Below, piece after piece: positions 9,535 to 62,952 of a stretch of 64,000 nt of DNA. Position numbers and translations under genes: made by a program. The notes beneath the pieces are model-generated. The model searched no databases. It was not told the DNA's origin and saw only the letters and a program-made list of their open reading frames with translations. Within the stretch, counting starts at the first letter, position 1. Each line of letters opens with the position of its first letter. The DNA is from Nemertoderma westbladi (taxonomy: Eukaryota > Animalia > Xenacoelomorpha): assembly GCA_032718475.1 (NCBI GenBank), contig JAUCBJ010000166.1, forward strand, positions 15,264 through 79,263, given 5' to 3'.

Positions 9535-9578
<44 letters not shown>

Positions 9579-11900: not shown

Positions 11901-11943
11901 AATTATGTATATGTGTTTAACATCCATAGATTGTATAAATTAT

Positions 11944-12172: not shown

Positions 12173-12289
12173 TTAATAAATTAATTATAAATTAAAAAAA
12201 TTAAAATTAAAATAAAATAAATTATATTAGGCCTATTATAAATTATAAAATGAATGTTATACGTTTTTCAGGATAGTACTTAAGTCATA

Positions 12290-12440
12290 TCTGAACCTAT
12301 CTGAACCCAATCTGGACCCAATCTCGAGAATTATACCAAATCTGAACCCAATCTGGACCCAATCTCGAGAATTATACCAAATCTGAACCCAATCTGGACC
12401 CAAGCTCGAGAATTATACCAAATCTGGACCCAATCTGAAT
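12290..12440. repeat. 41-bp tandem repeat, about 3 copies
   Basis: Unit aatctgaacccaatctggacccaatctcgagaattatacca. Confidence 0.75.
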
Positions 12441-12467
12441 CGGAAATAGAAAGAGATAGCAATGAAC

Positions 12468-20329: not shown

Positions 20330-21785
20330 TGCAACTCAATCCCCAATTACAATCAGTAGCAACTCAATCCCCATCTACAGACCGTAGCAATCCTCAGCTA
20401 CAGACCGTAGCAACTCAATCCCCAATGACAAGTAGTAGCAACTCAATCCCCATCTACAGACCGTAGCAACTCAATCCCCAATGACAGACAAGTACTAGCA
20501 ACTCAATGCCCACCTACAAGCTGTAGCAACTCAATCCCCAACTAGAGACCGTAGCAACTCAATCCCCAATGACAAGTAGTAGCAACTCAATGCCCACCTA
20601 CAAGCTGTAGCAACTCAATCCCCAACTAGAGACCGTAGCAACTCAATCCCCAACTACAGACCGTAGCAACTCAATCCCCAACTAGAGACCGTAGCAACTC
20701 AATCCCCAATGACAAGTAGTAGCAACTCAATGCCCCCCTACAAGCTGTAGCAACTCAATCCCCAACTAGAGACCGTAGCAACTCTATCCCCAATGACAAG
20801 TAGTAGCAACTCAATGCCCACCTGTAAGTAGTAGCAACTCAATCCCCAACTAGAGACCGTAGCAACTCAAACCCCAATGACAAGTAATAGCAACTCAATG
20901 CCCACCTACAAGCTGTAGCAACTCAATCCCCAACTAGATAACGTAGCAACTCAATCCCCAATGACAAGTAGTAGCAACTCAATGCCCACCTACAAGCTGT
21001 AGCAACTCAATCCCCAACTAGAGACCGTAGCAACTCAATCCCCAATGACAAGTAGTAGCAACTCAATGCCCACCTACAAGTAGTAGCAACTCAATCCCCA
21101 TCTACAGACCGTAGCAACTCAATCCCCAATGACAGACAAGTAGTAGCAACTCAATGCCCACCTACAAGCTGTAGCAACTCAATCCCCAACTAGAGACCGT
21201 AGCAACTCAATCCCCAATGACAAGTAGTAGCAACTCAATGCCCACCTACAAGCTTTAGCTACTCAATCCCCAACTAGAGACCGTAGCAACTCAATCCCCA
21301 ACTACAGACCGTAGCAACTCAATGCCACCTACAAGCAGTAGCAACTCAATCCCCAACTAGAGACCGTAGCAACTCAATCCCCAATGACAAGTAGTAGCAA
21401 CTCAATCCCCATCTACAGGCCGTAGCAACTCAATCCCCAATGACAAGTAGTAGCAACTCAATCCCCATCTACAGACCGTAGCAACTCTATCCCCAATGAC
21501 AAGTAGTAGCAACTCAATGCCACCTACAAGCAGTAGCAACTCAATCCCCAACTAGAGACCGTAGCAACTCAATCCCCAATGACAAGTAGTAGCAACTCAA
21601 TCCCCATCTACAGACCGTAGCAACTCAATCCCCAATGACAAGTAGTAGCAACTAATCCCCATCTACAGACCGTAGCAACTCAATCCCCAATGACAAGTAG
21701 TAGCAACTCAATGCCCACCTACAAGCAGTAGCAACTCACTGCTCAACTACAGACCGTAGCAACTCAATTCCCACCTCTACAGACA
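20330..21785. repeat. 28-bp minisatellite (~50 copies) with partial 84-bp higher-order period
   Basis: Core gtagcaactcaat(c/g)ccca; three variants (agacc-, aagta-, aagct-) cycle in order. Confidence 0.9.
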
Positions 21786-26200: not shown

Positions 26201-26356
26201 CTGGGGCGAGCCACGAAAGTAAGCGAGACACAAATTAGAGAACTATTATGAAAGGGGGGGGGGGGGGGGGGTGGCTGGGTGTGGGTGTGATGGAATCACT
26301 CAAATTTGTTCTCTCATAACTGAGCCTTGTGCTGCGAGGAAGACTCACGAACGTGT
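26201..26356 (-). mobile_element. Minimal (~155 bp) member of conserved-end element family
   Basis: tggggcgagccacgaa at one end and gtgctgcgaggaagactcacgaacgtgt at the other are reverse complements of the family termini. Confidence 0.6.
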
Positions 26357-30555: not shown

Positions 30556-30646
30556 ATGGCTCTCAATTACTCTATCGATTACTTGTTAGGTAACCAGGAA
30601 GACGTTCAATTTCCCTGTTATAAGACAAGTAGTAATAATAATAACG
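30556..30646 (+). CDS. Paired-class homeobox gene, coding exon 1 (MALNYSIDYLLG..., eh1/octapeptide-like)
   Basis: ATG in acaATGg context; YSIDYLL matches eh1 (F/Y)SIxxIL; donor G|GTTAGT at 30647, phase 1, compatible with exon at 41344. Confidence 0.8.
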
Positions 30647-33600
30647 GTTAGTAGTAGTAATAATAATAACGGTTAGTATTGGTAATAATAATAACGGTTA
30701 GTATTGGTAATAATAATAACGGTTAGTATTGGTAATAATAATAACGGTTAGTATTGGTAATAATAATAACGGTTAGTATTGGTAATAATAATAACGGTTA
30801 GTAGTGGTAATAATAATAACGGTTAATAGTGGTAATAATAATACCGGTTAGTAGTGGTAATAATAATAATGGTTAGTATTGGTAATAATAATAACGTTTA
30901 GTATTGGTAATAATAATAACGTTTAGTAGTGGTAATAATAATAACGGTTAATAGTGGTAATAATAATAACGGTTAGTAGTGGTAATAATAATAATGGTTA
31001 GTATTGGTAATAATAATAACGGTTAGTATTGGTAATAATAATAACGGTTAGTAGTGGTAATAATAATAACGGTTAATAGTGGTAATAATAATAACGGTTA
31101 GTAGTGGTAATAATAATAACGGTTAATAGTGGTAATAATAATACCGGTTAGTAGTGGTAATAATAATAATGGTTAGTATTGGTAATAATAATAACGGTTA
31201 GTATTGGTAATAATAATAACGGTTAGTAGTGGTAATAATAATAACGGTTAGTATTGGTAATAATAATAACGGTTAGTATTGGTAATAATAATAACGGTTA
31301 GTATTGGTAATAATAATAACGTTTAGTAGTGGTAATAATAATAACTATAAGTATTGTTAATAATAATAACGGTTAGTAGTGGTCATAATAATAACGGTTA
31401 GTAGTGGTAATAATAATAACGATTAGTATTGGTAATAATAATAACGTTTAGTAGTGGTAATAATAATAACTATTAGTATTGGTAATAATAATAACGGTTA
31501 GTAGTGGTCATAATAATAACGGTTAGTATTGGTAATAATAATAACGTTTAGTAGTGGTAATAATAATAACTATTAGTATTGGTAATAATAATAACGGTTA
31601 GTAGTGGTCATAATAATAACGGTTAGTAGTGGTAATAATAATAACGGTTAGTATTGGTAATAATAATAACGGTTAATAGTGGTAATAATAATAACGGTTA
31701 GTAGTGGTAATAATAATAACGGTTAGTATTGCTAATAATAATAACGTTTAGTAGTGGTAATAATAATAACTATTAGTATTGGTAATAATAATAACGGTTA
31801 GTAGTGGTCATAATAATAACGGTTAGTAGTGGTAATTATAATAACGGTTAGTATTGGTAGTAATAATAACGGTTAATAGTGGTAATAATAATAACGGTTA
31901 GTAGTGGTAATAATAATAACGGTTAGTATTGCTAATAATAATAACGTTTAGTAGTGGTAATAATAATAACTATTAGTATTGGTAATAATAATAACGGTTA
32001 GTAGTGGTCATAATAATAACGGTTAGTAGTGGTAATAATAATAACGGTTAGTATTGCTAATAATAATAACGTTTAGTAGTGGTAATAATAATAACTATTA
32101 GTATTGGTAATAATAATAACGGTTAGTATTGCTAATAATAATAACGGTTAGTAGTGGTCATAATAATAACGGTTAGTAGTGGTCATAATAATAACGGTTA
32201 GTAGTGGTAATAATAATAACTATTAGTATTGGTAATAATAATAACGGTTAGTAGTGGTCATAATAATAACGGTTAGTATTGGTAATAATAATAACGGTTA
32301 GTATTGGTAATAATAATAACTATTAGTATTGGTAATAATAATAACGGTTAGTAGTGGTCATAATAATAACGGTTAGTAGTGGTCATAATAATAACGGTTA
32401 GTAGTGGTCATAATAATAACGGTTAGTAGTGGTAATAATAATAACTATTAGTATTGGTAATAATAATAACGGTTAGTAGTGGTCATAATAATAACGGTTA
32501 GTATTGGTAATAATAATAACGGTTAGTATTGGTAATAATAATAACTATTAGTATTGGTAATAATAATAACGGTTAGTAGTGGTAATAATAATAACGGTTA
32601 GTATTGCTAATAATAATAACGTTTAGTAGTGGTAATAATAATAACTATTAGTATTGGTAATAATAATAACGGTTAGTAGTGGTCATAATAATAACGGTTA
32701 GTAGTGGTAATAATAATAACGGTTAGTATTGCTAATAATAATAACGTTTAGTAGTGGTAATAATAATAACTATTAGTATTGGTAATAATAATAACGGTTA
32801 GTATTGCTAATAATAATAACGGTTAGTAGTGGTCATAATAATAACGGTTAGTAGTGGTCATAATAATAACGGTTAGTAGTGGTAATAATAATAACTATTA
32901 GTATTGGTAATAATAATAACGGTTAGTAGTGGTCATAATAATAACGGTTAGTATTGGTAATAATAATAACGGTTAGTATTGGTAATAATAATAACTATTA
33001 GTATTGGTAATAATAATAACGGTTAGTAGTGGTCATAATAATAACGGTTAGTAGTGGTCATAATAATAACGGTTAGTAGTGGTCATAATAATAACGGTTA
33101 GTAGTGGTAATAATAATAACTATTAGTATTGGTAATAATAATAACGGTTAGTAGTGGTCATAATAATAACGGTTAGTATTGGTAATAATAATAACGGTTA
33201 GTATTGGTAATAATAATAACTATTAGTATTGGTAATAATAATAACGGTTAGTAGTGGTCATAATAATAACGGTTAGTAGTGGTAATAATAATAACGGTTA
33301 GTAATGGTAATAATAATAACTATTAGTATTGGTAATAATAATAACGGTTAGTAGTGGTAATAATAATAACGGTTAGTATTGGTAATAATAATAACGGTTA
33401 GTATTGGTAATAATAATAACTATTAGTATTGGTAATAATAATAACGGTTAGTAGTGGTCATAATAATAACGGTTAGTAGTGGTAATAATAATAACGGTTA
33501 GTAGTGGTAATAATAATAACGGTTAGTATTGGTAATAATAATAACGGTTAGTATTGGTAATAATAATAACTATTAGTATTGGTAATAATAATAACGGTTA

Positions 33601-36600
33601 GTAGTGGTCATAATAATAACGGTTAGTAGTGGTAATAATAATAACGGTTAGTAGTGGTAATAATAATAACGGTTAGTAGTGGTAATAATAATAACGGTTA
33701 GTATTGGTAATAATAATAACGGTTAGTAGTGGTAATAATAATAACGGTTAGTATTGGTAATAATAATAACGGTTAGTAGTGGTCATAATAATAACGGTTA
33801 GTATTGGTAATAATAATAACGGTTAGTATTGCTAATAATAATAACGGTTAGTAGTGGTAATAATAATAACGTTTAGTAGTGGTAATAATAATAACGGTTA
33901 GTAGTGGTAATAATAATAACGGTTAATAGTGGTAATAATAATAACGGTTAGTATTGGTAATAATAATAACGGTTAGTATTGCTAATAATAATAACGGTTA
34001 GTAGTGGTAATAATAATAACGGTTAGTAGTGGTAATAATAATAACGGTTAGTATTGGTAATAATAATAACGGTTAGTATTGCTAATAATAATAACGGTTA
34101 GTAGTGGTAATAATAATAACGGTTAGTAGTGGTAATAATAATAACGGTTAGTATTGGTAATAATAATAACGGTTAGTAGTGGTAATAATAATAACTATTA
34201 GTATTGGTAATAATAATAACGGTTAGTATTGGTAATAATAATAACGGTTAGTATTGGTAATAATAATAACGGTTAGTATTGGTAATAATAATAACGGTTA
34301 GTATTGGTAATAATAATAACGGTTAGTATTGGTAATAATAATAACTATTAGTATTGGTAATAATAATAACGGTTAGTATTGGTAATAATAATAACGGTTA
34401 GTATTGGTAATAATAATAACGGTTAGTATTGGTAATAATAATAACGGTTAGTAGTGGTAATAATAATAACGGTTAGTATTGGTAATAATAATAACGGTTA
34501 GTATTGGTAATAATAATAACGGTTAGTATTGGTAATAATAATAACGGTTAGTATTGGTAATAATAATAACGGTTAGTATTGGTAATAATAATAACGGTTA
34601 GTATTGGTAATAATAATAACGGTTAGTAGTGGTAATAATAATAACGGTTAGTAGTGGTAATAATAATAACGTTTAGTAGTGGTAATAATAATAACGGTTA
34701 GTAGTGGTAATAATAATAACGGTTAATAGTGGTAATAATAATAACGGTTAGTATTGGTAATAATAATAACGGTTAGTATTGCTAATAATAATAACGGTTA
34801 GTAGTGGTAATAATAATAACGGTTAGTAGTGGTAATAATAATAACGGTTAGTATTGGTAATAATAATAACGGTTAGTATTGCTAATAATAATAACGGTTA
34901 GTAGTGGTAATAATAATAACGGTTAGTAGTGGTAATAATAATAACGGTTAGTATTGGTAATAATAATAACGGTTAGTAGTGGTAATAATAATAACTATTA
35001 GTATTGGTAATAATAATAACGGTTAGTATTGGTAATAATAATAACGGTTAGTATTGGTAATAATAATAACGGTTAGTATTGGTAATAATAATAACGGTTA
35101 GTATTGGTAATAATAATAACGGTTAGTATTGGTAATAATAATAACTATTAGTATTGGTAATAATAATAACGGTTAGTATTGGTAATAATAATAACGGTTA
35201 GTATTGGTAATAATAATAACGGTTAGTATTGGTAATAATAATAACGGTTAGTAGTGGTAATAATAATAACGGTTAGTATTGGTAATAATAATAACGGTTA
35301 GTATTGGTAATAATAATAACGGTTAGTATTGGTAATAATAATAACGGTTAGTATTGGTAATAATAATAACGGTTAGTATTGGTAATAATAATAACGGTTA
35401 GTAGTGGTAATAATAATAACGGTTAGTATTGGTAATAATAATAACGGTTAATAGTGGTAATAATAATAACGGTTAGTAGTGGTAATAATAATAACGGTTA
35501 ATAGTGGTAATAATAATAACGGTTAATAGTGGTAATAATAATAACTATTAGTATTGGTAATAATAATAACGGCTAGTAGTGGTAATAATAATAACGGTTA
35601 ATAGTGGTAATAATAATAACGGTTAGTAGTGGTAATAATAATAACGGTTAATAGTGGTAATAATAATAACGGTTAATAGTGGTAATAATAATAACTATTA
35701 GTATTGGTAATAATAATAACGGCTAGTAGTGGTAATAATAATAACGGTTAGTAGTGGTAATAATAATAACGGTTAGTAGTGGTAATAATAATAACGGTTA
35801 ATAGTGGTAATAATAATAACGGTTAGTAGTGGTAATAATAATAACGGTTAGTAGTGGTAATAATAATAACGGTTAGTAATGGTAATAATAATAACGGCTA
35901 GTAGTGGTAATAATAATAACGGTTAGTAGTGGTAATAATAATAACGGTTAATAGTGGTAATAATAATAACGGTTAATAGTGGTAATAATAATAACTATTA
36001 GTATTGGTAATAATAATAACGGCTAGTAGTGGTAATAATAATAACGGTTAATAGTGGTAATAATAATAACGGTTAATAGTGGTAATAATAATAACGGCTA
36101 GTAGTGGTAATAATAATAACGGTTAGTAGTGGTAATAATAATAACGGTTAATAGTGGTAATAATAATAACGGTTAATAGTGGTAATAATAATAACTATTA
36201 GTATTGGTAATAATAATAACGGCTAGTAGTGGTAATAATAATAACGGTTAATAGTGGTAATAATAATAACGGTTAATAGTGGTAATAATAATAACGGTTA
36301 GTATTGGTAATAATAATAACGGTTAGTATTGGTAATAATAATAACGGTTAGTAGTGGTAATAATAATAACGGTTAATAGTGGTAATAATAATAACGGTTA
36401 ATAGTGGTAATAATAATAACTATTAGTATTGGTAATAATAATAACGGCTAGTAGTGGTAATAATAATAACGGTTAATAGTGGTAATAATAATAACGGTTA
36501 ATAGTGGTAATAATAATAACGGTTAATAGTGGTAATAATAATAACTATTAGTATTGGTAATAATAATAACGGCTAGTAGTGGTAATAATAATAACGGTTA

Positions 36601-37261
36601 ATAGTGGTAATAATAATAACGGTTAATAGTGGTAATAATAATAACGGTTAATAGTGGTAATAATAATAACTATTAGTATTGGTAATAATAATAACGGCTA
36701 GTAGTGGTAATAATAATAACGGTTAATAGTGGTAATAATAATAACGGTTAATAGTGGTAATAATAATAACGGTTAATAGTGGTAATAATAATAACTATTA
36801 GTATTGGTAATAATAATAACGGTTAGTAGTGGTAATTATAATAACGGTTAGTAGTGGTAATAATAATAACGGTTAGTATTGGTAATAATAATAACGGTTA
36901 GTAGTGGTAATAATAATAACGGTTAGTATTGGTAATAATAATAACGGTTAGTATTGGTAATAATAATAACGGTTAGTAGTGGTAATTATAATAACGGTTA
37001 GTAGTGGTAATAATAATAACGGTTAGTATTGGTAATAATAATAACGGTTAGTAGTGGTAATAATAATAACGGTTAGTATTGGTAATAATAATAACGGTTA
37101 GTATTGGTAATAATAATAACGGTTAGTATTGGTAATAATAATAACGGTTAGTAGTGGTAATAATAATAACGGTTAGTATTGGTAATAATAATAACGGTTA
37201 ATAGTGGTAATAATAATAACGGTTAGTATTGGTAATAATAATAACGGTTAGTAGTGGTAAT
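30628..37261. repeat. 25-bp minisatellite, about 265 copies, unit spans exon-1 end and donor
   Basis: Unit aataataataacG|GTTAGTa(g/t)tggt; first unit overlaps the exon. Confidence 0.95.
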
Positions 37262-37356
37262 CTTGCGGTTTTTATTAATTAAGAAGATTTAGAAGAATAA
37301 TTTTTATTCTCATTATATAATTTTTAATTAAGTTGGTGAATAAACTAATTTTGTAG

Positions 37357-40300
37357 AAACGTACAGAGTTAATGTCGGATGGCGAGTGTGGATGTGTTAA
37401 GTACCAGGTTAGGTTTACTATGAAACGTACAGAGTTAATGTCGGATGGCGAGTGTGGATGTGTTAAGTACCAGGTTAGGTTTACTATGAAACGTACAGAG
37501 TTAATGGCGGATGGCGAGTGTGGATGTGTTAAGTGCCAGGTTAGGTTTACTATGAAACGTACAGAGTTAATGGCGGATGGCGAGTGTGGATGTGTTAAGT
37601 ACCAGGTTAGGTTTACTATGAAACGTACAGAGTTAATGGCGGATGGCGAGTGTGGATGTGTTAAGTACCAGGTTAGGTTTACTATGAAACGTACAGAGTT
37701 AATGGTGGATGGCGAGTGTGGATGTGTTAAGTACCAGGTTAGGTTTACTATGAAACGTACAGAGTTAATGTCGGATGGCGAGTGTGGATGTGTTAAGTAC
37801 CAGGTTAGGTTTACTATGAAACGTACAGAGTTAATGTCGGATGGCGAGTGTGGATGTGTTAAGTACCAGGTTAGGTTTACTATGAAACGTACAGAGTTAA
37901 TGGCGGATGGCGAGTGTGGATGTGTTAAGTACCAGGTTAGGTTTACTATGAAACGTACAGAGTTAATGGTGGATGGCGAGTGTGGATGTGTTAAGTACCA
38001 GGTTAGGTTTACTATGAAACGTACAGAGTTAATGTCGGATGGCGAGTGTGGATGTGTTAAGTACCAGGTTAGGTTTACTATGAAACGTACAGAGTTAATG
38101 TCGGATGGCGAGTGTGGATGTGTTAAGTACCAGGTTAGGTTTACTATGAAACGTACAGAGTTAATGTCGGATGGCGAGTGTGGATGTGTTAAGTACCAGG
38201 TTAGGTTTACTATGAAACGTACAGAGTTAATGTCGGATGGCGAGTGTGGATGTGTTAAGTACCAGGTTAGGTTTACTATGAAACGTACAGAGTTAATGTC
38301 GGATGGCGAGTGTGGATGTGTTAAGTACCAGGTTAGGTTTACTATGAAACGTACAGAGTTAATGGCGGATGGCGAGTGTGGATGTGTTAAGTGCCAGGTT
38401 AGGTTTACTATGAAACGTACAGAGTTAATGGCGGATGGCGAGTGTGGATGTGTTAAGTACCAGGTTAGGTTTACTATGAAACGTACAGAGTTAATGGCGG
38501 ATGGCGAGTGTGGATGTGTTAAGTACCAGGTTAGGTTTACTATGAAACGTACAGAGTTAATGGTGGATGGCGAGTGTGGATGTGTTAAGTACCAGGTTAG
38601 GTTTACTATGAAACGTACAGAGTTAATGTCGGATGGCGAGTGTGGATGTGTTAAGTACCAGGTTAGGTTTACTATGAAACGTACAGAGTTAATGTCGGAT
38701 GGCGAGTGTGGATGTGTTAAGTACCAGGTTAGGTTTACTATGAAACGTACAGAGTTAATGGCGGATGGCGAGTGTGGATGTGTTAAGTGCCAGGTTAGGT
38801 TTACTATGAAACGTACAGAGTTAATGGCGGATGGCGAGTGTGGATGTGTTAAGTACCAGGTTAGGTTTACTATGAAACGTACAGAGTTAATGGCGGATGG
38901 CGAGTGTGGATGTGTTAAGTACCAGGTAGGTTTACTATGAAACGTACAGAGTTAATGGCGGATGGCGAGTGTGGATGTGTTAAGTACCAGGTAGGTTTAC
39001 TATGAAACGTACAGAGTTAATGGCGGATGGCGAGTGTGGATGTGTTAAGTACCAGGTTAGGTTTACTATGAAACGTACAGAGTTAATGGCGGATGGCGAG
39101 TGTGGATGTGTTAAGTGCCAGGTTAGGTTTACTATGAAACGTACAGAGTTAATGGCGGATGGCGAGTGTGGATGTGTTAAGTACCAGGTTAGGTTTACTA
39201 TGAAACGTACAGAGTTAATGGCGGATGGCGAGTGTGGATGTGTTAAGTACCAGGTTAGGTTTACTATGAAACGTACAGAGTTAATGGCGGATGGCGAGTG
39301 TGGATGTGTTAAGTGCCAGGTTAGGTTTACTATGAAACGTACAGAGTTAATGGCGGATGGCGAGTGTGGATGTGTTAAGTACCAGGTTAGGTTTACTATG
39401 AAACGTACAGAGTTAATGGCGGATGGCGAGTGTGGATGTGTTAAGTGCCAGGTTAGGTTTACTATGAAACGTACAGAGTTAATGGCGGATGGCGAGTGTG
39501 GATGTGTTAAGTACCAGGTTAGGTTTACTATGAAACGTACAGAGTTAATGGCGGATGGCGAGTGTGGATGTGTTAAGTACCAGGTTAGGTTTACTATGAA
39601 ACGTACAGAGTTAATGGCGGATGGCGAGTGTGGATGTGTTAAGTGCCAGGTTAGGTTTACTATGAAACGTACAGAGTTAATGGCGGATGGCGAGTGTGGA
39701 TGTGTTAAGTACCAGGTTAGGTTTACTATGAAACGTACAGAGTTAATGGCGGATGGCGAGTGTGGATGTGTTAAGTGCCAGGTTAGGTTTACTATGAAAC
39801 GTACAGAGTTAATGGCGGATGGCGAGTGTGGATGTGTTAAGTGCCAGGTTAGGTTTACTATGAAACGTACAGAGTTAATGGCGGATGGCGAGTGTGGATG
39901 TGTTAAGTACCAGGTTAGGTTTACTATGAAACGTACAGAGTTAATGGCGGATGGCGAGTGTGGATGTGTTAAGTACCAGGTTAGGTTTACTATGAAACGT
40001 TCAGAGTTAATGGCGGATGGCGAGTGTGGATGTGTTAAGTACCAGGTTAGGTTTACTATGAAACGTACAGAGTTAATGGCGGATGGCGAGTGTGGATGTG
40101 TTAAGTACCAGGTTAGGTTTACTATGAAACGTACAGAGTTAATGGCGGATGGCGAGTGTGGATGTGTTAAGTACCAGGTAGGTTTACTATGAAACGTACA
40201 GAGTTAATGGCGGATGGCGAGTGTGGATGTGTTAAGTGCCAGGTTAGGTTTACTATGAAACGTACAGAGTTAATGGCGGATGGCGAGTGTGGATGTGTTA

Positions 40301-41312
40301 AGTACCAGGTTAGGTTTACTATGAAACGTACAGAGTTAATGGCGGATCGCGAGTGTGGATGTGTTAAGTACCAGGTTAGGTTTACTATGAAACGTACAGA
40401 GTTAATGGCGGATGGCGAGTGTGGATGTGTTAAGTGCCAGGTTAGGTTTCCTATGAAACGTACCGAGTTAATGGCGGATGGCGAGTGTGGATATGTTAAG
40501 TACCAGGTTAGGTTTACTATGAAACGTACAGAGTTAATGGCGGATGGCGAGTGCGGATGTGTTAAGTACCAGGTTAGGTTTACTATGAAACGCTCAGAGT
40601 TAATGGCGGATAGCGAGTGTGGATGTGTTAAGTACCAGGTTAGGTTTACTATGAAACGTACAGAGTTAATGGCGGATGGCGAGTGCGGATGTGTTAAGCA
40701 CCAGGTTAGGTTTACTATGAAACGCACAGAGTTAATGGCGGATGGCGAGTGTGGATGTGTTAAGTACCAGGTTAGGTTTACTATGAAACGTACAGAGTTA
40801 ATGGCGGATGGCGAGTGTGGATGTGTTAAGTACCAGGTTAGGTTTACTATGAAACGTACAGAGTTAATGGCGGATGGCGAGTGTGGATGTGTTAAGTACC
40901 AGGTTAGGTTTACTATGAAACGTTCAGAGTTAATGGCGGATGGCGAGTGTGGATGTGTTAAGTACCAGGTTAGGTTTACTATGAAACGTTCAGAGTTAAT
41001 GGCGGATGGCGAGTGTGGATGTGTTAAGTACCAGGTTAGGTTTACTATGAAACGCACAGAGTTAATGGCGGATGACGAGTGTGGATGTGTTAAGTACCAG
41101 GTTAGGTTTACTATGAAACGTACAGAGTTAATGGCGGATGGCGAGTGTGGATGTGTTAAGTACCAGGTTAGGTTTACTATGAAACGTACAGAGTTAATGG
41201 CGGATGGCGAGTGTGGATGTGTTAAGCACCAGGTTAGGTTTACTATGAAACGTACAGAGTTAATGGCGGATGGCGAGTGTGGATGTGTTAAGTACCAGGT
41301 TAGGTTTACTAT
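37357..41312. repeat. 66-bp minisatellite, about 60 copies (51-nt exon-like segment plus GT donor)
   Basis: Starts exactly after ttttgtAG; unit aaacgtacag...gtaccag|GTTAGGtttactatg; three units are 65 bp. Confidence 0.95.
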
Positions 41313-41343
41313 TGCGTAGAAAACATTTTGTTAACTTTTACAG

Positions 41344-41438
41344 ATTCCAGTTGCGATGATGGCGACTGTATTGAAATTTGTCACATTAGAAACAAAAAAC
41401 CGCGACACAGAACAACCTTTAGCTCGTGGCAACTTCAG
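41344..41438 (+). CDS. Paired-class homeobox gene exon (acidic linker plus homeodomain residues 1-14, KPRHRTTFSSWQLQ)
   Basis: Acceptor ttttacAG, donor CAG|GTAAGT; phase 1 in, phase 0 out. Confidence 0.9.
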
Positions 41439-42178
41439 GTAAGTAATACGTCAGAGAACAATATATACGTCACAGAACAATATATACGTCACAGAACAAT
41501 ATTATACGTCAGAGAACAATATTATACGTCACAGAACAATATTATACGTCACAGAACAACCTTTACCTCGTGGCAACTTCAGGTAAGTAATACGTCACAG
41601 AACAACCTTTACCTTGTGGCAACTTCAGGTAAGTAATACGTCACAGAACAACCTTTACCTCGTGGCAACTTTAGGTAAGTAATACATCACAGAACAACCT
41701 TTACCTCGTGGCAACTTCAGGTAAGTAATACGTCACAGAACAACCTTTACCTCGTGGCAACTTCAGGTAAGTAATACGTCACAGAACAACCTTTACCTCG
41801 TGGCAACTTCAGGTAAGTAATACGTCACAGAACACTATTAGGCCTATACGTCACAGACCAATATAAACGTCACAGAATAATATTATACGACACAGAACAA
41901 TATATACGTCACAGAACAATATATACGTCACAGAACAATATATACGACACAGAACAATATATACGTCACAGAACAATATTATACGTCACAGAACAATATT
42001 ATACGTCACAGAACAATATTATACGTCGCAGAACAATATTATACGTCACAGAACAATATATACGTCACAGAACAAAATATACGTCACAGAACAATATTAT
42101 ACGTCAGAGAACAATATTATACGTCACAGAACAATATATACATCACAGTACAATATATACGTCACAGAACAATATATA
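41407..42178. repeat. 46-bp repeats of the exon-end/donor junction (6 extra copies, 41551-41826) within 19-20-bp repeats
   Basis: Unit acagaacaacctttacctcgtggcaacttcag|GTAAGTaatacgtc; flanking unit acagaacaatat(t)atacgtc. Confidence 0.9.
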
Positions 42179-43039
42179 TATAACACATCAAATTAAATTG
42201 ATCTCATAAATATCTTCAGGTAGTAATTATTATAGCCTGTTGTTACATTGCATTCGTAGCATTGGCCTTAAGACTGTATTTGTTTTTCAATATCAGTAAA
42301 TAGGTGTGGTGTGTATGAACTGCTTCAACTCGATTTCTTTACAATCAATTTTAAGGAATAAAGAGTACATTCAATTTAATTCAGTTCAATAATTTAAACC
42401 CACTACAATCAATGGTTCGGGCAACGGCTTATCACTAGATAACATGAACGTAGTAGTGAGTGAGTGCGAATACATTCTGGAATAGGAAAAGGAATAAAAA
42501 CAAACTTGAACATTTCTAAGTGAATGTTAACAAAAAACCTACGTATTAATATCTTTTTGTTCGAGCGAATATGCAATAAATATTTCAAGGTATAATCATT
42601 TAAACCCCACATAATTAATAATACCCACATAATTCAACCCCAAGGAGTTAATGAAGGTAATCGGCTTTCACTAAGAAGCAGTGCCGGCCGCTGGACCGAT
42701 TAACTTAGTGCCCCCATATCTTGTTGTCAGCCATGCAATTTCCCAGTTCATCCCTATTCTCACCAGCAGCCGGCTGCCTAAGCACAATGTTGTGTACAGG
42801 TTGATCCTACCGGCGGAAACATTGTCCAGGAGGCTTCTTCAGGCGGTGTCTCTACAGGGTGATGCTGGGTCTTAGCAGTGAGATGCCAAAGTTGTATAAC
42901 ACCTCATTGCTTATGTATAAATAATAGGCAATGTTGTCTAACCGGCACAGCATGCTGGTATTTGTACCATCCATAGGCCTGGTGTCTTCAGCAGTTAGCG
43001 CCATGGACTACCTGCTTCAGTCTACGTGCTAATCCACGT

Positions 43040-43165
43040 GAATGAGCACGTGGATGACTTCTGGTACTTGGGATCATGGATCCGAAAGTCAGAGACTTTC
43101 GGATACGTAACGGGAATACATGGGCAGCGTTAAATAGTCTGTCCGGGATTTGGAAGTCCCATAGA
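43040..43165 (+). mobile_element. Short RTE-like retrotransposon fragment
   Basis: Encodes VDDFWYLGSWI and WAALNSLSGIWKS, similar to the RTE fragment at ~5340-5460. Confidence 0.5.
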
Positions 43166-43991
43166 ATAAAGTAGACAGGAATTCTGTAGGCAGAATTCCG
43201 CTGCTATATGCGCGGCTAAATTTATCTATCCCATTTATTACTGGAGGGTTTCACGTTGCAGTACTAATGGGATCGCCACAACATAAATAACTGCGCTATA
43301 TAATTTTTTATTCAAAACCAAATATAATTGTGTAAATTGATCTTAAGATATTTATGGTAAATCGTTAAATCCATGACGACATTATTAGTAATCCATTAGA
43401 ATCTATATCCATTTATGTCTCATAATAATGTAGTCAAAGTAAATTATAGCACCAATATACTACCGGTATGCTGCATTGCAGCTGCACATTGAGACGATAT
43501 GCGGGCTTAACAATAAATTTGTGCTACAGGCGTTACTACAGTTCTACTCTCCGATGCGGCAGGGAATAGCGTCGACGGTCAAAGCTCTGTACTCTATAAA
43601 AAAAAACAAAGATCGAAGGGGCCAAATGAAATTGTCTTGTAACCCCTACCCAGCCGCTTGATTAACTATAATTATGGCTATACTGTACTGTATGTATACA
43701 TACATACGTACATATATACAGTTCGAGTTATACTGCTTAGAGGCTGATATTTTCATAACAGAAAGTATCACCTATGGGCAACATAATTGAAGAATCTCAA
43801 CTTCTGACGACTAGCCAATGGCATTATAGGATGTCTTACGTAGCACAAAGTACCATGACGTCATTAAACTTGAAGTACGAGGAATTGTCAGCCTTGTAAA
43901 CCCGTTAATAGTGAATTTCAAGGGCTGACAAAATTACATTTGATAAACATTAAACAACCACTGATCTCTTACATATTGAACCATATACAAT

Positions 43992-44546
43992 ACACGAAGT
44001 GGGGACTTCGCGCAGCACGAAGTTGGCAGAGCCTTAGCGAATTGACACTGTTAGGGGGTAGGTCAATTTATGCAAATAGTCACGTTGGCCCTCTAGCGGC
44101 AGACTGGAGAACTGCAGATGGATTCGCCTCCTTTGAAAGTCACAGCTAATGGTCTAATACATATCTGCCAAGTTTCAGCTTAAACGGATTAAAAGCAAAG
44201 AAATGGGAGGGCATTTAAAGTTTAGACATGTGGCCCTCTAGCGGGAGACCATTGCACTGATGGTGTCTGAAAGTCTCTCAAAAATCTCAACTTTTGCTCA
44301 TATTGATACCTACAAATTTTCAACTTGGCAGCTTTAAATCCGACAAAGTTATTAGCATGTCAAAATCGTAACGACGACGACGACGACGACAACGACGACG
44401 ACGACGACAACGACGACGACGACGACAACGACGACGACGACGACGACAACGACGACGACGACGACGACAACTATTTGCATAAATTGACCCACCCCCTAAC
44501 AGTGTCAATTCGCTAAGGCTCCGCCAACTTCGTGGCTCGCCTCACA
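43992..44546 (+). mobile_element. Conserved-end family element with ~63-bp internal inverted repeats and (GAC/AAC)n microsatellite
   Basis: Family termini present; 44018-44080 is the inverse of 44470-44533; microsatellite 44371-44471. Confidence 0.75.
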
Positions 44547-45269
44547 ATCGAACGAGGCTTAGACACAGTAAAAAATAACTGTTTTATTTTATATCACATA
44601 TGATACACAATGCTAACGTGGGGAAACAAAAACTGACTACTTGAACAATTTAAGGGTTGGTCCCTTATTTGGTTGATACGCTACCATCGATATGTGCCAG
44701 ATGTTCAATTTCGGTCGCGATGGTGTGGGGGTTATTTTTAATTTCTTTGAGATAGGCATTTTTTCCCTACAACAGTTTCTGCAACAGTTATCTGTAGTAT
44801 TGTAGCAAAAAAATAGCTGTGATGCAGGATTCCAGAACTTTTAAATTTTAAAACAGCAAAAATAATGTACTTGTCATCAATGGCATCTAAGCATTGTGGA
44901 GAATTCAAGTTTAACATGAAATTGTCCGCTATCATTTTATGACAGTGATTGCAAAAATGGCAAAATTGCAAAAATTGCAAATCATTTTATAGAGGTAAAA
45001 AAAGTGTAGCTTTTTTTGCCTTGAAATATTTATTACAATAATACAGGTAGATTTCTATTATTTTTCTTAAAAACCACCAAAAGCATTAAGATCTAATTTG
45101 ATGTCAAATTTGAATTGATGTAAATTGAAAGCTTTTGGAGTTATTAAGTTTTTTCAATTTTTCTCATTTGTGAATTTTTTGTCATTCAGCATGACACTCT
45201 CTGGTACATGTGCCGTTAGGTTAGGTTACAGATTAAAAGGGGGTTGAAAGGGCACAGTGGAATAATTAA

Positions 45270-53650
<8,381 letters not shown>

Positions 53651-54149
53651 TAGTATTGGGTATGTTTCATTTTTCTTAGATTTTTTTACATTTGGAAGGG
53701 AAGAATTATCTGTTTTGAAAAAAAATATATCTGGGCTCAATTATTTTTAAAATGGAAATAATTACTTATGACCATAGTTTCCTAATAATACAATTATTGC
53801 TCGGTGAAATTTCTACAAATTTGGTAAATATTATGCACATTCTATTCTATCTATTCGTATCCAGAAAGATACAGTTTTATGGAAAAAATTCCAAAATTAA
53901 TTGTTTATTTGCCAAACATACATAGCATAATAATTTATATTAATAAAATTAATATAATTGCAATATACTGCAGTATTTTGTGCACCGGTATATACTAACT
54001 ACTGGATTAACTGTACAGGCCTAACTGACACGGACCGGTTTTAGCTTATGTTTACATGCAAATACGCTAATACATTTTTAATAAAGAAGAAATCAACGCG
54101 CCACTAATGGGAATTAATTCTTCTTCCATTATTGAATTATGCGAACCCA

Positions 54150-57100
54150 CCCACGGGAAATCGAATGGAAATTGAGGAAATCGAGGAAATGGTTGGCTTA
54201 ATGACAACGCCATCGACGCGGTTCTCAGTTCTTTCACCAGTGCTCGCAATGATGTCAATGCGCTCTACCATTTCATTGACTGCTACTCAGCTAACAATGG
54301 CGGGTATGAATTGGTGAAACGATGGACGAGGAATATAAACATCTTCACGTTCACCGTGAACGGTACGTAAACCGTGAACGTAAACGGTACACACTGGGCT
54401 CTCATAGTCTTCTACCCTAAACGGGGCAACATCGCCTATCTACTGTAAATTCACTGGCAAAAACGAACATGGTAGCAGTAAATATAGTAAAAGAATGGGC
54501 TAAACTAGAAGTGGATACACTAAACATCTCGCCTCCAAATATTACTATAACCCACCCTTGGACCGCCGACAATTTAACTCACACAAGTGTGGTGTTTATC
54601 TGTCATTTTGCCAAAATGTGCATTGAGGGAGGTTCTCTGGTGGAATTAAAACGGTGAGACTGTGCAGCTTTTCATGGAGTCACTATTGGAAGAGATTTAA
54701 TCTCTAATCAGGGACTCTACGAACACCACCCCAAATCACCACAACTACACCACCTCGACAGCCGCCCACGATGCACAACACATCGATGGGATCATCACAA
54801 AGCCAAGGAACATCGAACTGTGTGTCCTGTCACAATTAACGCCAATGTTTCCCTGCGAGTTCACGGTCCTACTGCCAGTAGATGTCTGGGTTCTGGCAAC
54901 CCCAGACCAAGAGACACATCAGAAGAGTCAACTGCAGAAGTTCTGCTTGCTGAATCTAGCAGTATAGATGTTGAAACCATAGTTAAATTAATATTCACCA
55001 ACCAGGCAAAACAACTAAAATATGTCCCCAAGGCTTCGAGGGCCAACTTCGCTTACCGACTTGTCCGACATATTAATGGAAATTGTTTCAGACCCACAGT
55101 AGTCAGTGGGAAGTTGGACCAAGCTCCTCTTGATAGGTCACCGATGCTGTGGAAAGCACCATCAGCGTTCACTGGCTTCACAGGTGAACAAGAACATTTC
55201 CACCTTCCGTACTACTTCTCAATTCAGCATCACACCAACCACTAAGAAGAGCAACTACCCAACTAGACAACAGCCGAATCGGGAGAACATTCGCTTTGAC
55301 ACCGCAGTATCTGAAAATATTGAGGATGGGGACATTAAGGGGGCCATACTCATGGCCTCATCAAAGGATACAATCGCCTCCAACAACCCAGAGACACTCG
55401 AAGCCCTGAAAGTAAAACACCCACCCTGTCTTCCAGATAGACGAGCATCACCCCCTCCAGTGGAAACAGCTACAACCCCCTGTTATCTCCAAGTGGTTAA
55501 GAAGCTTATTGCCTCATTCCCAAGTGGTAGTGTAGGATGGCCAGATGGCATATGGCCCCAAATCCTTAAGGATTTGATCGCCACAACAGACAGGGAGCAA
55601 GCAAAAAGGCTTCCTACTTCACTTTGTAAGTTGGCATATGGCCCCAAATCCATAAGGATTTGATCACCACAACAAATGGGGAGCAAGCAAAAAGGCTTCT
55701 TACTTCAGTTTGTTGATATGGTGGTTGCGGGAAAAATCCCTAAAGATATCCACCCTATTTTCTTCGGCGCAAATTTGTTCGCCTTCACTAAGAGCTCAGG
55801 TGGAATCCGACCAATAGCAGTGGGAATGACCTTACGGTGTCTCTGTTCGAAGTTTACAGGCTCGATTGCGAAAGAGGAGTGATCCACATCTTACGGAACA
55901 ATCCAACTTGGAATCGGGACTAGAAACAGTGGGATAGCTGATGCCCATGCCACCCGGTCTCTTGTTGAAAGCGAGCAGGACAATAGCACTGTCCTACTGA
56001 AGGTAGATTTCAGTAATGCTTTTAATACACTCTGCAGGGACTCCTTCTTAGAGACTATCCATCAGAACCACCCAACTATATATAATTATACTAGGGCTGC
56101 ATATGGAGACTACAGTTTCATTATTCATGGGGAAACTGTACTCCACTCTGAAGAGGGACCATAGCAGGGAGATCAGAAGGTCCGACAATATTCAGGGATA
56201 CCACTAATAAACTCAATCACTCCATGATATCGAAATTTAACATATGGTACCTTGATGATGGTAATGTGGTAGATAGATCGGAAGTTATCCTGTAAGACCC
56301 CAGGACAATCAAAGAGGGGGGAAATAAGTGCGGCCTCACACTAAACATGAGGATGTATGAACTCTTCTTCCTCGGTAATCCTTCTACAGATGACTATGAC
56401 CGCAACCACAGTGAATTTGAGGCTATATGTGAGGGTATCTTAGTTCCATACCTCGCCAACCTCACCATGCTTGGTGCACCAATAAGAAGCTAAGCCTTGG
56501 AATCCTGTTTGGAATCAAAGGTGGCAGACCTAGGAGACCTTTAGCGGCCGACTGTCTCTTAAAGATAGCCACCACAACCTCTTCCTCCTTAAGAACTCCA
56601 TTGCGATCCCCCGCCTCCTCTACTTCCTCCGCTTCACTCCCTGCTTCGAGCTCCCACTAATCCTGGAGTGATACGACCAGCTCTTCCGGACCCAGGCCTA
56701 TCTCCCGTCCCAAATGGGAGGTCCAGCAGCTCGCACCATCCACCTATCTGGCTTCAGTGGCTGCTTGTAGACCTCTCTCAATCCTCATCTACAATCCGGT
56801 TCGTCCTGCTCTCCCACCATCCCTGCTCCCACCATCCCACCAGTAGACCTCCCTCCCTGCAGTGACCCGATTGCACTGAGTGCCCTGGACCTGTGTCAGT
56901 CCCAGACACCACTTAGCCAACCAATGGGAAGCCGAGTTCCTGGACAGCGCCCATCCACCAGAGGAACCTCGCCTCCCTCTGGGAATCCGCAGTTACTTCC
57001 ATCGACCTCGCCTGGCTCAACTCCCTGGAGGACCCAACTCCTAGCTGCTGGATTGATGCAATCCCAATATCATCTCTTGGGCTTAAACTACAGATGCCAA

Positions 57101-57760
57101 GCTCCGCATCTCCGTGGCAACTCGGCTGTTAATTGTGTCCGCTGCAGTAAAATGGTGAACACTGACGGCCTCTACAGACTCTTCTGCCAGAAGAGCGCCA
57201 GTCATCACACCCACCACATCATGTTGAACAACATTATGCGCCAATCATTAACCAGCTGTGGAGTCCCATTGGTGCTGGAGCTACCAGGTCTTTGCTGGAC
57301 GACGGGAAATGGGTGGACGGAGTAATCTTGGTTCCCTGGAGCGAGGCTGGACCCTGGCAAGGGATGCCACTCTGGTCGACGCACTCACTCCCAGCCACCT
57401 CCCCACGAGCCAAACTGAAGGTGGCCATGTAGCCGAGCAGCAGGAGGCCCATAAGATAGGCAAATACTGTGAGCTCATCAACCGGGGCTACCAGTTTACC
57501 CCGGTCGCCTTTCGAGACATTCGGCTGCCCTGGTCCCAAAACGGCTGAGTTTCTTGGGGAACGGGGAAGGAGGATTGCCTCCCAGAAGCAGGAACCGTGC
57601 TCCCACCATTTTCTACTGCAGCGGATCCTCATCGCGATCCTAATTGGGAACACCGCATCCATGCTGGGATCCTATATGACTATATGACATTCTGGAGGGA
57701 TAGAGTCTCTAGCATTCGAAGGACTATATGACATTCTGGAGGGGTAGAGTCTCTCTAACT
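54150..57760 (+). mobile_element. Decayed CRE-like non-LTR retrotransposon (Ulp1 protease, zinc-finger-like, RT, restriction-like endonuclease), intronic
   Basis: Broken frames: WLND, GYELVKRWT, THWALIV, QFNSHKCG (Ulp1/SENP); LRVHGP...C.GS; FGANLFAFTKSSGGIRPIAVG; LLKVDFSNAFN; WYLDDG; C..C...H...C, DATLVD, FETFG (REL end). Boundaries approximate. Confidence 0.85.
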
Positions 57761-58463
57761 GGTGCGATCTTCTTCACGCTGCATTTTTAAATACTTTTTA
57801 TCTACCAGTAACCCTATCTTTTTAATTATCATTGTTTTTACTTTCTTATGGAAGGAAGTAAGAATAATTTTAACAATTTTATCGTACTGTACTCTTCCAG
57901 GGTATCTCTCTACTGTACCTAATCTAATCTACTACCTAATCTGTACCTAATCTAATCTAATCTGTACCCTAGCAACCCCTTCTGATCAGCTGTGCGTAGT
58001 TATTTTTATTTTATCAACTTTCCAAAATTAATATATGTTTACTTACTATACATGCATAACAACGAAGGTTTTACATAGCAACCATAAAGTTGTTCATAGT
58101 ATCAGCGGGTATTCCAACCATAAAAAATTTCCTTCACTAGTGTCAAGCTTTCCCTAGCAATGGTGGGTTTTGCATAGCAACGGCAATGGCGAATTTACCA
58201 CAGCAACTGGGTGCTTTTCTTAGCAACGCAAGGGAGGCAATATTTCCTTATCAATGGCGATTTTTGCATAGCCCTCGCCTCTCCATTTCATGGAACCGTA
58301 GAAAACTGGTTTGCAATCAGAAAAACGGCCAACCATAGAAATAATGTGTTTGGGGAAGACGCTGACCAGACTGCAGAGTGCAGACTGCATGAAAACCTGC
58401 TGATACTTTACGTCTCGTTTATTAACTATCATATTAAAGTATATTTTGTATTTTATTTTGTAG

Positions 58464-58633
58464 AGCTATACAATGAAGCATTGATTAAATACTGCAAATT
58501 AACACCAGTTGTTATTGGAGAGCAAACAGCAGTTGCTGCAAGTCTCGCTAATGATGGTAAAGAACCAGTGTTGACTCTTGAACATGATAGTTCAGATTAT
58601 GGTATCACAATCGAATCGAAAAATGATGAATGA
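58464..58633 (+). CDS. Paired-class homeobox gene, probable last coding exon
   Basis: Strong acceptor ttttgtattttattttgtAG; phase 1 matches previous donor; open to TGA (LYNEALIKYCK...ESKNDE*). No recognisable motif, so supported by splice logic only. Confidence 0.65.
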
Positions 58634-60183: not shown

Positions 60184-61953
60184 TTTATCGCCTCTGGTTC
60201 TTTATCGCCCCTGAGCCTTTATCGCCTCTGGTCCTTTATCACCCCTGATCCTTTATTGCCTCTGGTCCTTTATCGTGCATATACATATTCCCTCAACTTT
60301 CCCATACTTCCTCTAAGCCAAACAATTTAGTTATAGTGTACGTACAGCTATATTTATACTCAAATAGTTTCAGTTATCGGAGGCGGTGTCCAGACAATTG
60401 CGACCCAGACAATTATTGCGACCCCTCATTTTAGATAAATTTGCTCAGTCGCAAATGCCCTGAATTAGAAATAGAGATATGAAATGGCCTTAAAACCTAA
60501 ATATTACATGTATGACAAATCTATGTTAAATATATATTAAATGGCCTTTTATTGCCAATTGGCAATAATTGGTCTACATAATAATTATCTTCATTCATTT
60601 TTTAATAACTTTACTGCAAATGTGGAATTCATTTAACCCTATCTCTGTGAATTGTGCAATAATCAATTTCAATCTCTCCGGTATTGAAATGCTTAAAAAG
60701 AGGCTTCGCTTCGCGCTTCTTTCAATGTAAATTTAATTGTATAATTATAAATTATTTAAATATAATTATATACAAAATAAAAGTACTTTTTCTTTATAAG
60801 CGATTAATTTCAATCAAAAGAATTTTAATTATTTAACTCAGTTAAATAATTGAAATTAAAATTGAAATAATTGAAATTAGTTCGATTTGCCCCTGGGCAC
60901 TCCACCCCCTTGGTCCGCCCCTGTGGGACTGCACTTTTCACACAAATTATTTCACATACGTTATCAATCTCTGTATGGTATCTATGGAGCCATTATGATA
61001 GAATTTGATGAAAATGCAATGATGGATGGAGCTGGTGTTATTGGTTGATGCAGATGGTGTGACTGAAATTCCATGCCCATCTTATGAAGCAACCAATAAT
61101 GGTGAACTACTTTTAATTCTGAATGATTCTCACAACATGACACAATGGAACTGAGAGCACTCCGCAACTGAGAGCACTCCGCAACTGAGAGCACTCAGCA
61201 ACTGAGACCACTCAGCAACATCAACAAGGAAACGTTGTATGACATGAAGGTGAACAAGGTCGTGATGCTGATAATATAATAGATGCAGTGTTCGCTATAA
61301 TAAAGTCCTAGAGGGAAATTAGATATTTCATACTGTGGCTTGACAATTGTACTAGTCAAGATAAGAACTGGTACATACCTCTTGTGTGAATATAGTCAAT
61401 AGTAACAGTGGACCACATATTATCATCTTGAAATAAATGACCAAAATAGTCATACACTACACACATGTTGGCCGACTCATTCATGGTTACATCGAGCAAA
61501 ATAACGTCATATGATATTGATAACCTGAATAATCTTATTGCGACATCGCGTAAGAATGCTACGATCCTCCATCGTCCTATGCCATATATGTGGCAGCATA
61601 AAAAATCAAACGCAAAATCAATGCACTCACCCTATCTAAAAGATGTTATTGAAGTTAAGTTTCAAAAGGGTGTTCGACATAATATGGTCTTTATAACTGA
61701 GTTAGATCAACCAATGCATACATAAAAACTTCCTACAATGGAAAGTTACTGTTGAGGATTTCCCGAAATTGAAAGTAGTATCCAGTGGTCTGCAAACTGT
61801 AAAGAAAACACATAGTCGGGAAGTTGGTTCCAATCATGCCTCTTAATAGTAATTGTAAATATAAGAGAGATTAATAAGGGATCCTAAAGATACAATTCCA
61901 GCACTTGGTCACAGTATTTACATAGCACATATAGATCTTTGCAAGAGAACAAT

Positions 61954-62952
61954 ACACGTTCGTGGGGACTTCGCGCAGCACGAGAGTGCATACGTACAAA
62001 TTTTGGTTTAATTTAATCTGCAATTGCCCGACTTATTTCGGTTTTTATAAAAAGTCTGAAACCACCGGTACCGACTGACCTATTTTTGACCAATCTTCAG
62101 ATACTTTCCAAACTTTTAATGGACTGCATACGTACAAGTTTGGTTTAATTCATCATTTGATTGAACGACTTATTTCAGTTTTTATCAAAAGTCTGAAACT
62201 ACCGGTACCGAGTGTCCGACAGTCTTATTTTGATAAAAACTCAGATTATTTCTAAATTTCTAATAGACTGCATGATGTAATAAAAGTTGGTTTAATTCTA
62301 GTAATTGTTGTTGGCTTTAAAGAATTTAATATAAAAAACGTGCAAAATAAGTTTGCCAGAGATATGATTCGAACCAGCGCGAGAAGATCCCATTGGATGG
62401 CTAGTCCAACGCCTTATCCACTCAGCCAACACCGCTCGAGGTAACGAGCGGGCCAATGAAGGTATTAAAGTTTTATACTGCAATTTCGTAATCACTACTG
62501 ATAAGTACAGCAGTAGGCCTACCGTACCGGTAGGCCTATGTCATTACTTCGGAGTCTCTAGCGGATCCCCAATTAAATGTCTTAACTTTTCAATTTCGTA
62601 AAAGATAGACTTCATGATTCTCTACAAGCAACCAAAATTTCAGCTCAGGAAAATGAGGCGTTCCCGAGAAATTTAACATTTTCTAAAAACCACATAATCT
62701 GTCGTAGCTGACGTCAGACTGCATGATTTTTCACCAAACTTTACAAACTTTCTAAACTTTCTCTCTACTACTTACCTACTAAGTTTGGTTCAATTCCGAA
62801 CCAGCGATGCCGAGAAATTCGCGTTCAAACATTTACCAGACAGACGGACGGACAGACAGACAGACGGACAGACAGACAGACAGACGGACATGCCCCATTT
62901 GCCCTATATGAACCGTATGCCAAGGCTCGCCGACTACGTGTCTCGCCCCACA
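61954..62952 (+). mobile_element. Conserved-end family element with unrelated interior and (GACA/GACG)n microsatellite
   Basis: Left end acacgttcgtggggacttcgcgcagcacgag; right end cgtgtctcgccccaca; microsatellite 62838-62890. Confidence 0.7.
62354..62435 (-). pseudogene. tRNA-Ser-derived pseudogene
   Basis: Minus strand gcggtgttggctgagtggataaggcgttggactagccatccaatgggatcttctcgcgctggttcgaatc follows the animal tRNA-Ser layout (long variable arm); acceptor stem broken and anticodon loop altered. Confidence 0.7.

Follow-up and report, generated by a model that had tools for sequence, protein, structure and literature searches.

Minisatellite arrays at the intron ends of a Repo homeobox gene in Nemertoderma westbladi

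The Repo homeobox gene of Nemertoderma westbladi carries tandem arrays at five of its six intron ends, three of them spanning donor splice sites and two stopping just before acceptors; the acceptor of intron 3, at exon 4, is the only intron end without an array. Called with TRF, the arrays occupy 19,544 of 28,078 bases, counted from the start codon through the stop codon (~70%), and are the main cause of the length of the gene, whose open frame measures 528 bases. An earlier note on this DNA had estimated ~19 kb of arrays in a 28-kb gene with 528 coding bases and had interpreted them as a form of intron expansion; the estimate holds. The phenomenon itself has already been described in amphioxus and human; what is new here, to judge from the literature searched, is the lineage, the occupation of five of six intron ends, and the scale. 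Coordinates refer to the window, the whole 64-kb stretch of DNA analysed, and all features lie on its + strand.

Gene structure and family assignment

The gene is composed of four exons separated by GT-AG introns. The coding part of exon 1 (30556..30646, 91 nt) encodes an octapeptide-like N-terminal motif and ends at a phase-1 donor, G/GTTAGT, where the slash marks the junction. Exon 2 (41344..41438, 95 nt) contains the start of the homeodomain and ends at a phase-0 donor, CAG/GTAAGT, while exon 3 (53303..53474, 172 nt) covers positions 14-57 of PF00046 and ends at a phase-1 donor, A/GTAAGT; the coding part of exon 4 (58464..58633, 170 nt) runs to the TGA. The three junctions originally proposed from the letters of the DNA (30646/41344, 41438/53303, and 53474/58464) agree with a published N. 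westbladi transcript open reading frame (ORF), Locus_18856, which its authors labelled Repo (PMC6125248 supplement). In a by-eye comparison, 174 of 175 residues were equal between the four-exon model and this ORF (PMC6125248), and the model is, as judged from this match, correct. At the protein level, the first (exon-side) donor is used in all three introns of this one assembled transcript. The transcript support consists of a single assembled ORF from a supplement, as distinct from reads, so isoform proportions and any minor use of other donors may escape it.

The sole difference in 175 residues concerns residue 57, which is Ser in exon 2 of the window and Thr in Locus_18856. The residue is Thr-coding in six of six copies of a 46-mer repeat described below and is Ser in the Meara orthologue (PMC6125248), and the difference may represent either a plain polymorphism or an exchange of sequence between exon and array.

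The closest homologues of the gene carry the homeodomain signature APYPD, which denotes Repo in two published alignments and is common to beetle, fly, lancelet, and Nematostella Repo in the supplementary material of these studies (PMC5322547, PMC6125248). Homeodomain identity ranges from 38 to 44 of 57 residues against 12 fetched homologues. On these features, the predicted protein belongs to the Repo (reversed polarity) family of PRD-class homeobox proteins; CG11294, considered as a family name, was dropped in favour of Repo. The N. westbladi protein shares the APYPD signature with the family but is short (175 aa). It also differs in gene structure, as intron 2, which lies between homeodomain Gln and Glu codons, is absent from all seven intron-bearing homologous loci. 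Of 80 loci fetched for this comparison, 13 carry the family motif. Two of the seven intron-bearing loci have identical sequence around the match, while the remaining six motif loci, possibly transcripts, lack an intron at this position. Intron 2 may therefore be a lineage-specific gain. A protein-level search for close relatives found none: an exact look-up returned no hit (0/3), the best TPR match was at 35%, and the thioesterase match at ~30%.

Tandem arrays at donors and acceptors

Every donor of the gene is covered by an array that spans the authentic exon-intron boundary. At the first donor, a 25-mer array (30628..37261; 265.4 copies, 265 in-register units) repeats the end of exon 1 together with its donor. 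The GT is kept in 212 of 265 units and G/GTTAG in 177, and each downstream 25-mer donor brings an in-frame TAG. In their match to U1, 90 of the 265 donors reach 8 of 11 positions, against 7 of 11 for the real donor. With respect to possible selection against decoy donors, variants occur at -1, +1, +2, +3, and +5, as well as at eight other positions, and stem from few events.

The second donor is followed by a compound array (41446..42180) in which 19/20-mer units, each a fusion of the intron start with a piece of exon 2, surround six copies of a 46-mer. The latter (41544..41834; 6.3 copies) joins 33 exon-2 bases to 13 intron bases, and its donors, located after positions 41582, 41628, 41674, 41720, 41766, and 41812, keep GTAAGT in six of six copies. 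The donor at 41582, the second of intron 2, is in frame; it would add 144 bases without a stop (48 residues) and rebuild the homeodomain start, and this insertion is absent from the Locus_18856 ORF. Further downstream, the segment 42214..42227 probably derives from the exon-2 donor in decayed form (14 of 15 aligned bases); of 2,930 window segments compared, it gives the highest-scoring match other than self, a resemblance that is weak alone. Together, the 46-mer, the 19/20-mer, and the relic at 42214 represent repeats of two ages at one donor.

Two repeat ages are likewise found at the third donor (53459..53653). A 22-mer of 16 exon-3 and 6 intron bases, present in 5.0 identical copies (53459..53568; signal intact in 5/5), is followed by an older 37-mer of 31 exon and 6 intron bases at 85% matches (53547..53653; 2.9 copies), which spans the same donor and had gone unmentioned before. 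Downstream donors in this intron read through a stop. The earlier note had stated that only the outermost copy preserves the reading frame; this is borne out in introns 1 and 3, where stops lie downstream, but does not hold for intron 2, whose donor at 41582 continues the frame without a stop.

The acceptor-side arrays adjoin their junctions and do not span them, so the strict definition of a mirage, a spanned boundary, excludes them. In intron 1, a unique AT-rich spacer (37262..37356) ends in the acceptor-like CTAATTTTGTAG, and the 66-mer array that follows (37356..41312; 60.0 copies) ends 31 nt before exon 2. CAG/GT is present in 60 of 60 units and CAG/GTTAGG in 57. Within the first unit, an AG (37355-37356) and a donor (37408) bound a 51-nt exon-like segment (37357-37407). 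As a normal coding exon this segment was rejected: the phase 1 set by exon 1 encounters a stop, the open phase-0 frame cannot join exon 2, and the segment is absent from the Locus_18856 ORF. The proposal that the 66-mer is anchored on a splice signal of the gene is not supported, as its AG and donor are unused in the transcript ORF and the array stays 31 bases short of exon 2. Its likeness to the start of exon 2 is also weak, the score being reached by 43 of 3000 shuffles and 19 of 2206 window segments, and does not suffice to identify it as an old acceptor mirage.

The 35-mer array of intron 2 (45263..53285; 229.2 copies, 229 units) ends 17 nt before exon 3. CTAAT occurs in 176 of 229 units and TAATCAG, which brings an AG, in 205, compared with 7% of random 35-mers of the window for CTAAY; the unit contains no pyrimidine tract, and the real acceptor lies outside the array. 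The last CTAAT (53279-53283) is, as a best guess, the likely branch point of intron 2, and the claim that the array ends on a branch point can be retained in this qualified form for a motif close to an acceptor 17 bases beyond the array. The broader claim that five arrays each sit on a splice signal thus applies to the 25-mer, 46-mer, and 22/37-mer, which span real donors, and not to the 35-mer and 66-mer. Similarly, most copies carry a signal but not all of them, the exceptions being 25-mer units without GT and 35-mer units without CTAAT. The proposed copy numbers (~265, ~60, and ~229) are matched by those from TRF.

All units consist of local sequence, each restricted to its own intron end, and apart from local relics none of the five recurs elsewhere in the 64-kb window. 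Within this window, the result does not fit introners or transposon-derived units, of which dispersed copies and terminal repeats would be expected. A MITE-like end motif of the window had no matches in a metagenome scan.

Internally, 22, at least 14, and 39 unit variants are arranged in ordered blocks, with 8 and 22 variants in single copy and almost no indels; the 25-mer accounts for 22 variants among 265 units and the 35-mer for 39 among 229. The variant maps form blocks of blocks, in which the longest exact repeated run covers 29 of 265 units (25-mer) or 18 of 229 (35-mer). The left edges are distinct, the first two units of both the 25-mer and the 35-mer being single-copy variants, while the right edges are not. 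These block-like maps show concerted evolution from which edge units are excluded, a further property of mirages. Such ordered heterogeneity has the look of real minisatellites, and the copy numbers are given as assembled.

Parallels in amphioxus and human genes

The term mirage reportedly originates from Canestro et al. 2002. It denotes the tandem duplication of an exon-intron boundary, described in amphioxus for Adh3, BflGb6/BflGb9, troponin C, and PGBD5, which leaves splicing undisturbed and whose mechanism has been called unclear in the available accounts (PMC3087553, PMC3902484; for the mechanism, PMC3087553). The N. westbladi arrays share with these cases boundary-spanning units of a size within the reported 10-160 bases, splice signals in many but not all copies, normal splicing, more than one array per gene (two in PGBD5), and edge units that escape homogenisation (PMC3087553, PMC3902484). 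Regular splicing is likewise undisturbed in N. westbladi Repo, as far as one assembled ORF with 174 of 175 equal residues can indicate. The differences concern the phylum (Xenacoelomorpha), the involvement of every donor of the gene, and the copy number, which is 60-265 in N. westbladi versus 2-7 in the amphioxus globin and PGBD5 cases as described. Furthermore, no acceptor is spanned in N. westbladi, where two arrays stop short, whereas BflGb6 spans one; general purging of acceptor copies would agree with N. westbladi Repo (0/3 spanned) but not with BflGb6, and is not proposed.

In human genes, variable number tandem repeats (VNTRs) spanning donors have been described in F7 intron 7 (IVS7; 37 bp in 5-9 copies), 6-16 (25 pseudo-sites), CBS IVS13 (15-20), LMNB2 (10-15), and PDGF (16-18) (PMC1557585). 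In these F7-type repeats, the authentic donor lies in the first unit and identical pseudo-donors follow, as in N. westbladi; the most upstream donor is used even if a later one is in frame (PMC1557585), and the outcome in the N. westbladi ORF is alike. For F7, the upstream-first choice was shown by mutation in mammalian cells (PMC1557585), an experimental demonstration of donor scanning, whereas the N. westbladi case is known from sequence and one ORF. The human genes also carry one array each with no more than ~25 copies, whereas in N. westbladi three donors are affected and the number of intact copies rises to 212. Internal tandem repeats at exon-intron boundaries are additionally known from human segmental duplications (PMC2812944). 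There, too, minisatellite expansion lengthens introns at exon-intron boundaries, but the genes are young paralogues in which the repeats are frequently included in the mRNA or give rise to new introns (PMC2812944), while N. westbladi Repo is a conserved homeobox gene with an assembled ORF free of arrays. A dispersed minisatellite reported near alternative exons (PMC4039745) represents a different phenomenon.

A literature search in which most subscription papers were outside reach yielded no report of such arrays in Nemertoderma. In the main text of the genome paper of the species, supplements aside, 'splice' has no matches and 'satellite' has one, in the references (PMC10565955).

Array placement, intron history, and origin

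When five arrays are placed uniformly on the collapsed gene of 8,728 bases, the probability that all three donors are spanned is 5.5e-6; with introns of 206, 300, and 940 bases (the last two being estimates) and purely exonic duplications forbidden, it is 8.3e-4, and 4e-6 for the five-end pattern, while introns of 110 bases give 0.03 and 0.0014, respectively, all of these values being uncorrected for the selection of this one gene for the feature. Short-intron geometry takes away two orders of magnitude and not the whole effect, and the placement of arrays at intron ends is above chance in this one gene. To this extent, and for this gene only, a link between arrays and splice junctions, whether by nucleation or by retention, is supported. 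The window contains 18 arrays, at a density of 0.57 per kb (collapsed) in the gene versus 0.39 outside; their position is unusual, their number is not.

The introns of Repo were probably short in the past. With its arrays collapsed, intron 1 measures 206 bases (110+51+45). In intron 2, decayed relatives of the 35-mer (42375..42650) scored at levels that shuffled sequences reached once and never in 2000 trials each. They are separated by 2.6 kb from the start of today's array downstream, which suggests that ~2.6 kb entered the intron after the unit existed and hence that intron 2 was once short. Intron 3 consists mostly of a decayed retroelement-like insertion (54060..57970, with approximate ends taken from a GC shift), in which an RVT_1 match has an E of 0.045 and does not reach the cut-off.

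The account considered rather probable combines slippage in once-short introns, tolerance through use of the exon-side signals, and neutral growth by unequal exchange. Seeding would have occurred by short slippage duplications, to which near-matches of 6-11 bases at both array edges point in four of six unit types (25-, 46-, 37-, and 35-mer; none for the 66-mer and 22-mer); these may instead be remnants of later deletions. In short introns whose exons are under purifying selection, the DNA left for surviving duplications would be junction-proximal, and the exon side may shield arrays from erosion, as deletions on that side would be purged. The most upstream donor would win and the downstream copies be spliced out, an outcome seen in one ORF and a mechanism proposed by analogy with F7. 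Each junction would see several rounds of array expansion and turnover, as nested variant blocks and the coexistence of old and young units suggest, and growth would be neutral, by repeated unequal exchange. The arrays are likely harmless to the gene.

Several observations weigh against this combined account. Even under geometry alone, P remains 8e-4 for three donors and 4e-6 for five ends, so added bias is needed; since short introns do not suffice for the full pattern, some junction bias, in retention or in origin, has to be placed within it. In addition, one third or so of the 25-mer donors (90/265) beat the real donor in U1 match, and some downstream donors are active in human 6-16 and CBS (PMC1557585). 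For introns 1 and 3, an upstream-first choice would look no different from the removal of stop-containing products by decay; intron 2 alone argues for such a choice through the in-frame donor at 41582, unused in one assembled ORF. This unused donor, the best evidence here, suggests that donor choice in intron 2 depends on position and is not explained by decay of faulty products alone. A far-reaching reading, in which nemertodermatid junctions generate tandem duplications as a main genome-wide route of intron growth, accompanied by exchange of sequence between exon and array, is regarded as doubtful.

The junction bias could also be purely mutational. Splice junctions would then be hot spots at which co-transcriptional splicing, through pausing, RNA-DNA hybrids, or nicks, starts duplications whatever selection follows. 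Arrays at five of six intron ends, with a P of 4e-6 even for short introns, and the repeated rise of independent units at the same donor speak for such hot spots, but the case rests on one gene and retention yields the same end state. Moreover, Repo is not known as a germline-expressed gene, which counts against this explanation. It is accordingly held to be possible but improbable.

Considerably less probable is the preservation of the arrays by selection as regulators of splicing or expression, whether as spare U1 sites that protect long introns, as recursive-splicing points (the AG/GT motif of the 46-mer and 66-mer provides candidate sites), through a 51-nt exon whose stop would allow control by decay, or through an isoform with 48 additional residues. 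The universal CAG/GT of the 66-mer (60/60) and GTAAGT of the 46-mer (6/6) would fit regulation, as would the in-frame donor at 41582 that rebuilds the homeodomain start, yet young repeats are expected to be highly identical anyway. Moreover, GT is lost in 53 of 265 25-mers, in variants that have themselves multiplied as blocks, the 8-kb 35-mer array has no donor, and neither alternative (the 48 residues or the 51-nt unit) appears in the Locus_18856 ORF. Protection from poly(A) signals was also rejected as a function, with only one poly(A) hexamer in 18.6 kb of array.

Comparably small is the probability that the junction-spanning units are real while amplification or assembly has exaggerated their very large copy numbers. 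For a published N. westbladi genome, which may not be the assembly of the window, the DNA was PCR-amplified and reads averaged 6.6 kb (PMC10565955), a length below that of the array blocks of 10.7 kb and 8 kb. Ordered variant blocks, single-copy variants, and the near-absence of indels speak against inflation, and an assembler cannot produce diverged relics or an 85% 37-mer. Least probable of all is mere coincidence, with splice sites irrelevant in a genome of tiny introns and abundant minisatellites: array density is close inside and outside the gene, and P rises to 0.03 with 110-base introns in a gene chosen for the feature, but all three donors are spanned, the reconstructed introns 2 and 3 exceed 110 bases, and lancelets show the same pattern.

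With the N. westbladi gene, the known range of mirage-type repeats comes to include Xenacoelomorpha, a group remote from chordates. It also provides a natural test of splice-site choice, with more than 200 intact copies of one donor, many of which equal or exceed the real donor in U1 match, and with an in-frame, perfect-consensus rival donor in intron 2 that decay cannot hide. Such arrays can mislead gene prediction, as illustrated by open frames of 376-522 codons that run through the 66-mer array. If arrays proved to be enriched at intron ends genome-wide, this species could serve to separate the origin of such repeats from their retention.

Intron positions and codon 57 of Repo

The intron that interrupts the homeodomain of Repo (41438/53303) occupies a position at which none of the seven intron-bearing Repo-like loci compared (the fetched homologs L002, L033, L035, L038, L039, L040 and L044) carries an intron. 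In six of these seven loci, an acceptor is found approximately 10 codons upstream of this position, at an Arg, whose counterpart in the Repo gene of the window lies at 41406-41411, where the exon-derived part of the 46-mer begins. Within intron 1, an upstream AG at 41319/41320 would extend exon 2 by eight in-frame codons, and it is unused as an acceptor in the transcript ORF. Codon 57, located in exon 2 (41422-41424), encodes Ser, whereas the published transcript carries Thr, the residue also present at the corresponding position in all six 46-mer copies (41560-41803). This mismatch may reflect either a polymorphism or gene conversion between the array and the exon.

Mobile-element-like sequences and a non-junction array

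Intron 3 contains a decayed, putatively reverse-transcriptase-bearing element on the forward strand (54060-57970, ends approximate), in which RVT_1 is matched only at E 0.045, below the cut-off. The element features an internal duplication of 86 bases at 55543-55713 and a CTAAT-rich tail at 57919-57968. Elsewhere in the window, a MITE-like family sharing one end motif is represented at 9380-18130, 26303-26356, 43995-44545 and 61953-61984, and some of its members enclose GACAGA or ACG microsatellites. Nested inverted copies of this family form long inverted arms across 9.4-18.1 kb, a region that includes a 239-base palindrome at 11939-12177. A large 28-mer array (51 copies, 75% matches; 20331-21773), situated 0.9 kb upstream of a tetratricopeptide repeat (TPR) ORF, adjoins no recognised splice site and does not fit the placement of arrays at Repo intron ends, unless an untranslated exon is present there.

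Intronless ORFs

Two intronless ORFs lie on the forward strand. The first encodes an acyl-CoA thioesterase II (7522-8646), with top sequence matches approximately 30% identical, those bearing names being bacterial, and with closest atlas clusters that are mostly eukaryotic; it may have arisen as a retrogene, by intron loss or by transfer. The second is the TPR ORF (22714-24786, 690 aa), whose nearest named matches are TTC24 (30-34%) and which terminates in CVIL, resembling a CaaX prenylation signal.

Open frames within the 66-mer array

The 66-mer array contains open frames of 522, 396 and 376 codons (within 37372-41319), which consist of a Cys-containing 22-residue repeat. The N. westbladi genome paper describes a model with more than 1200 exons that was discarded as an artefact (PMC10565955); arrays of this kind might conceivably lie behind that model. 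The open frames of the 66-mer array constitute a trap for gene prediction.
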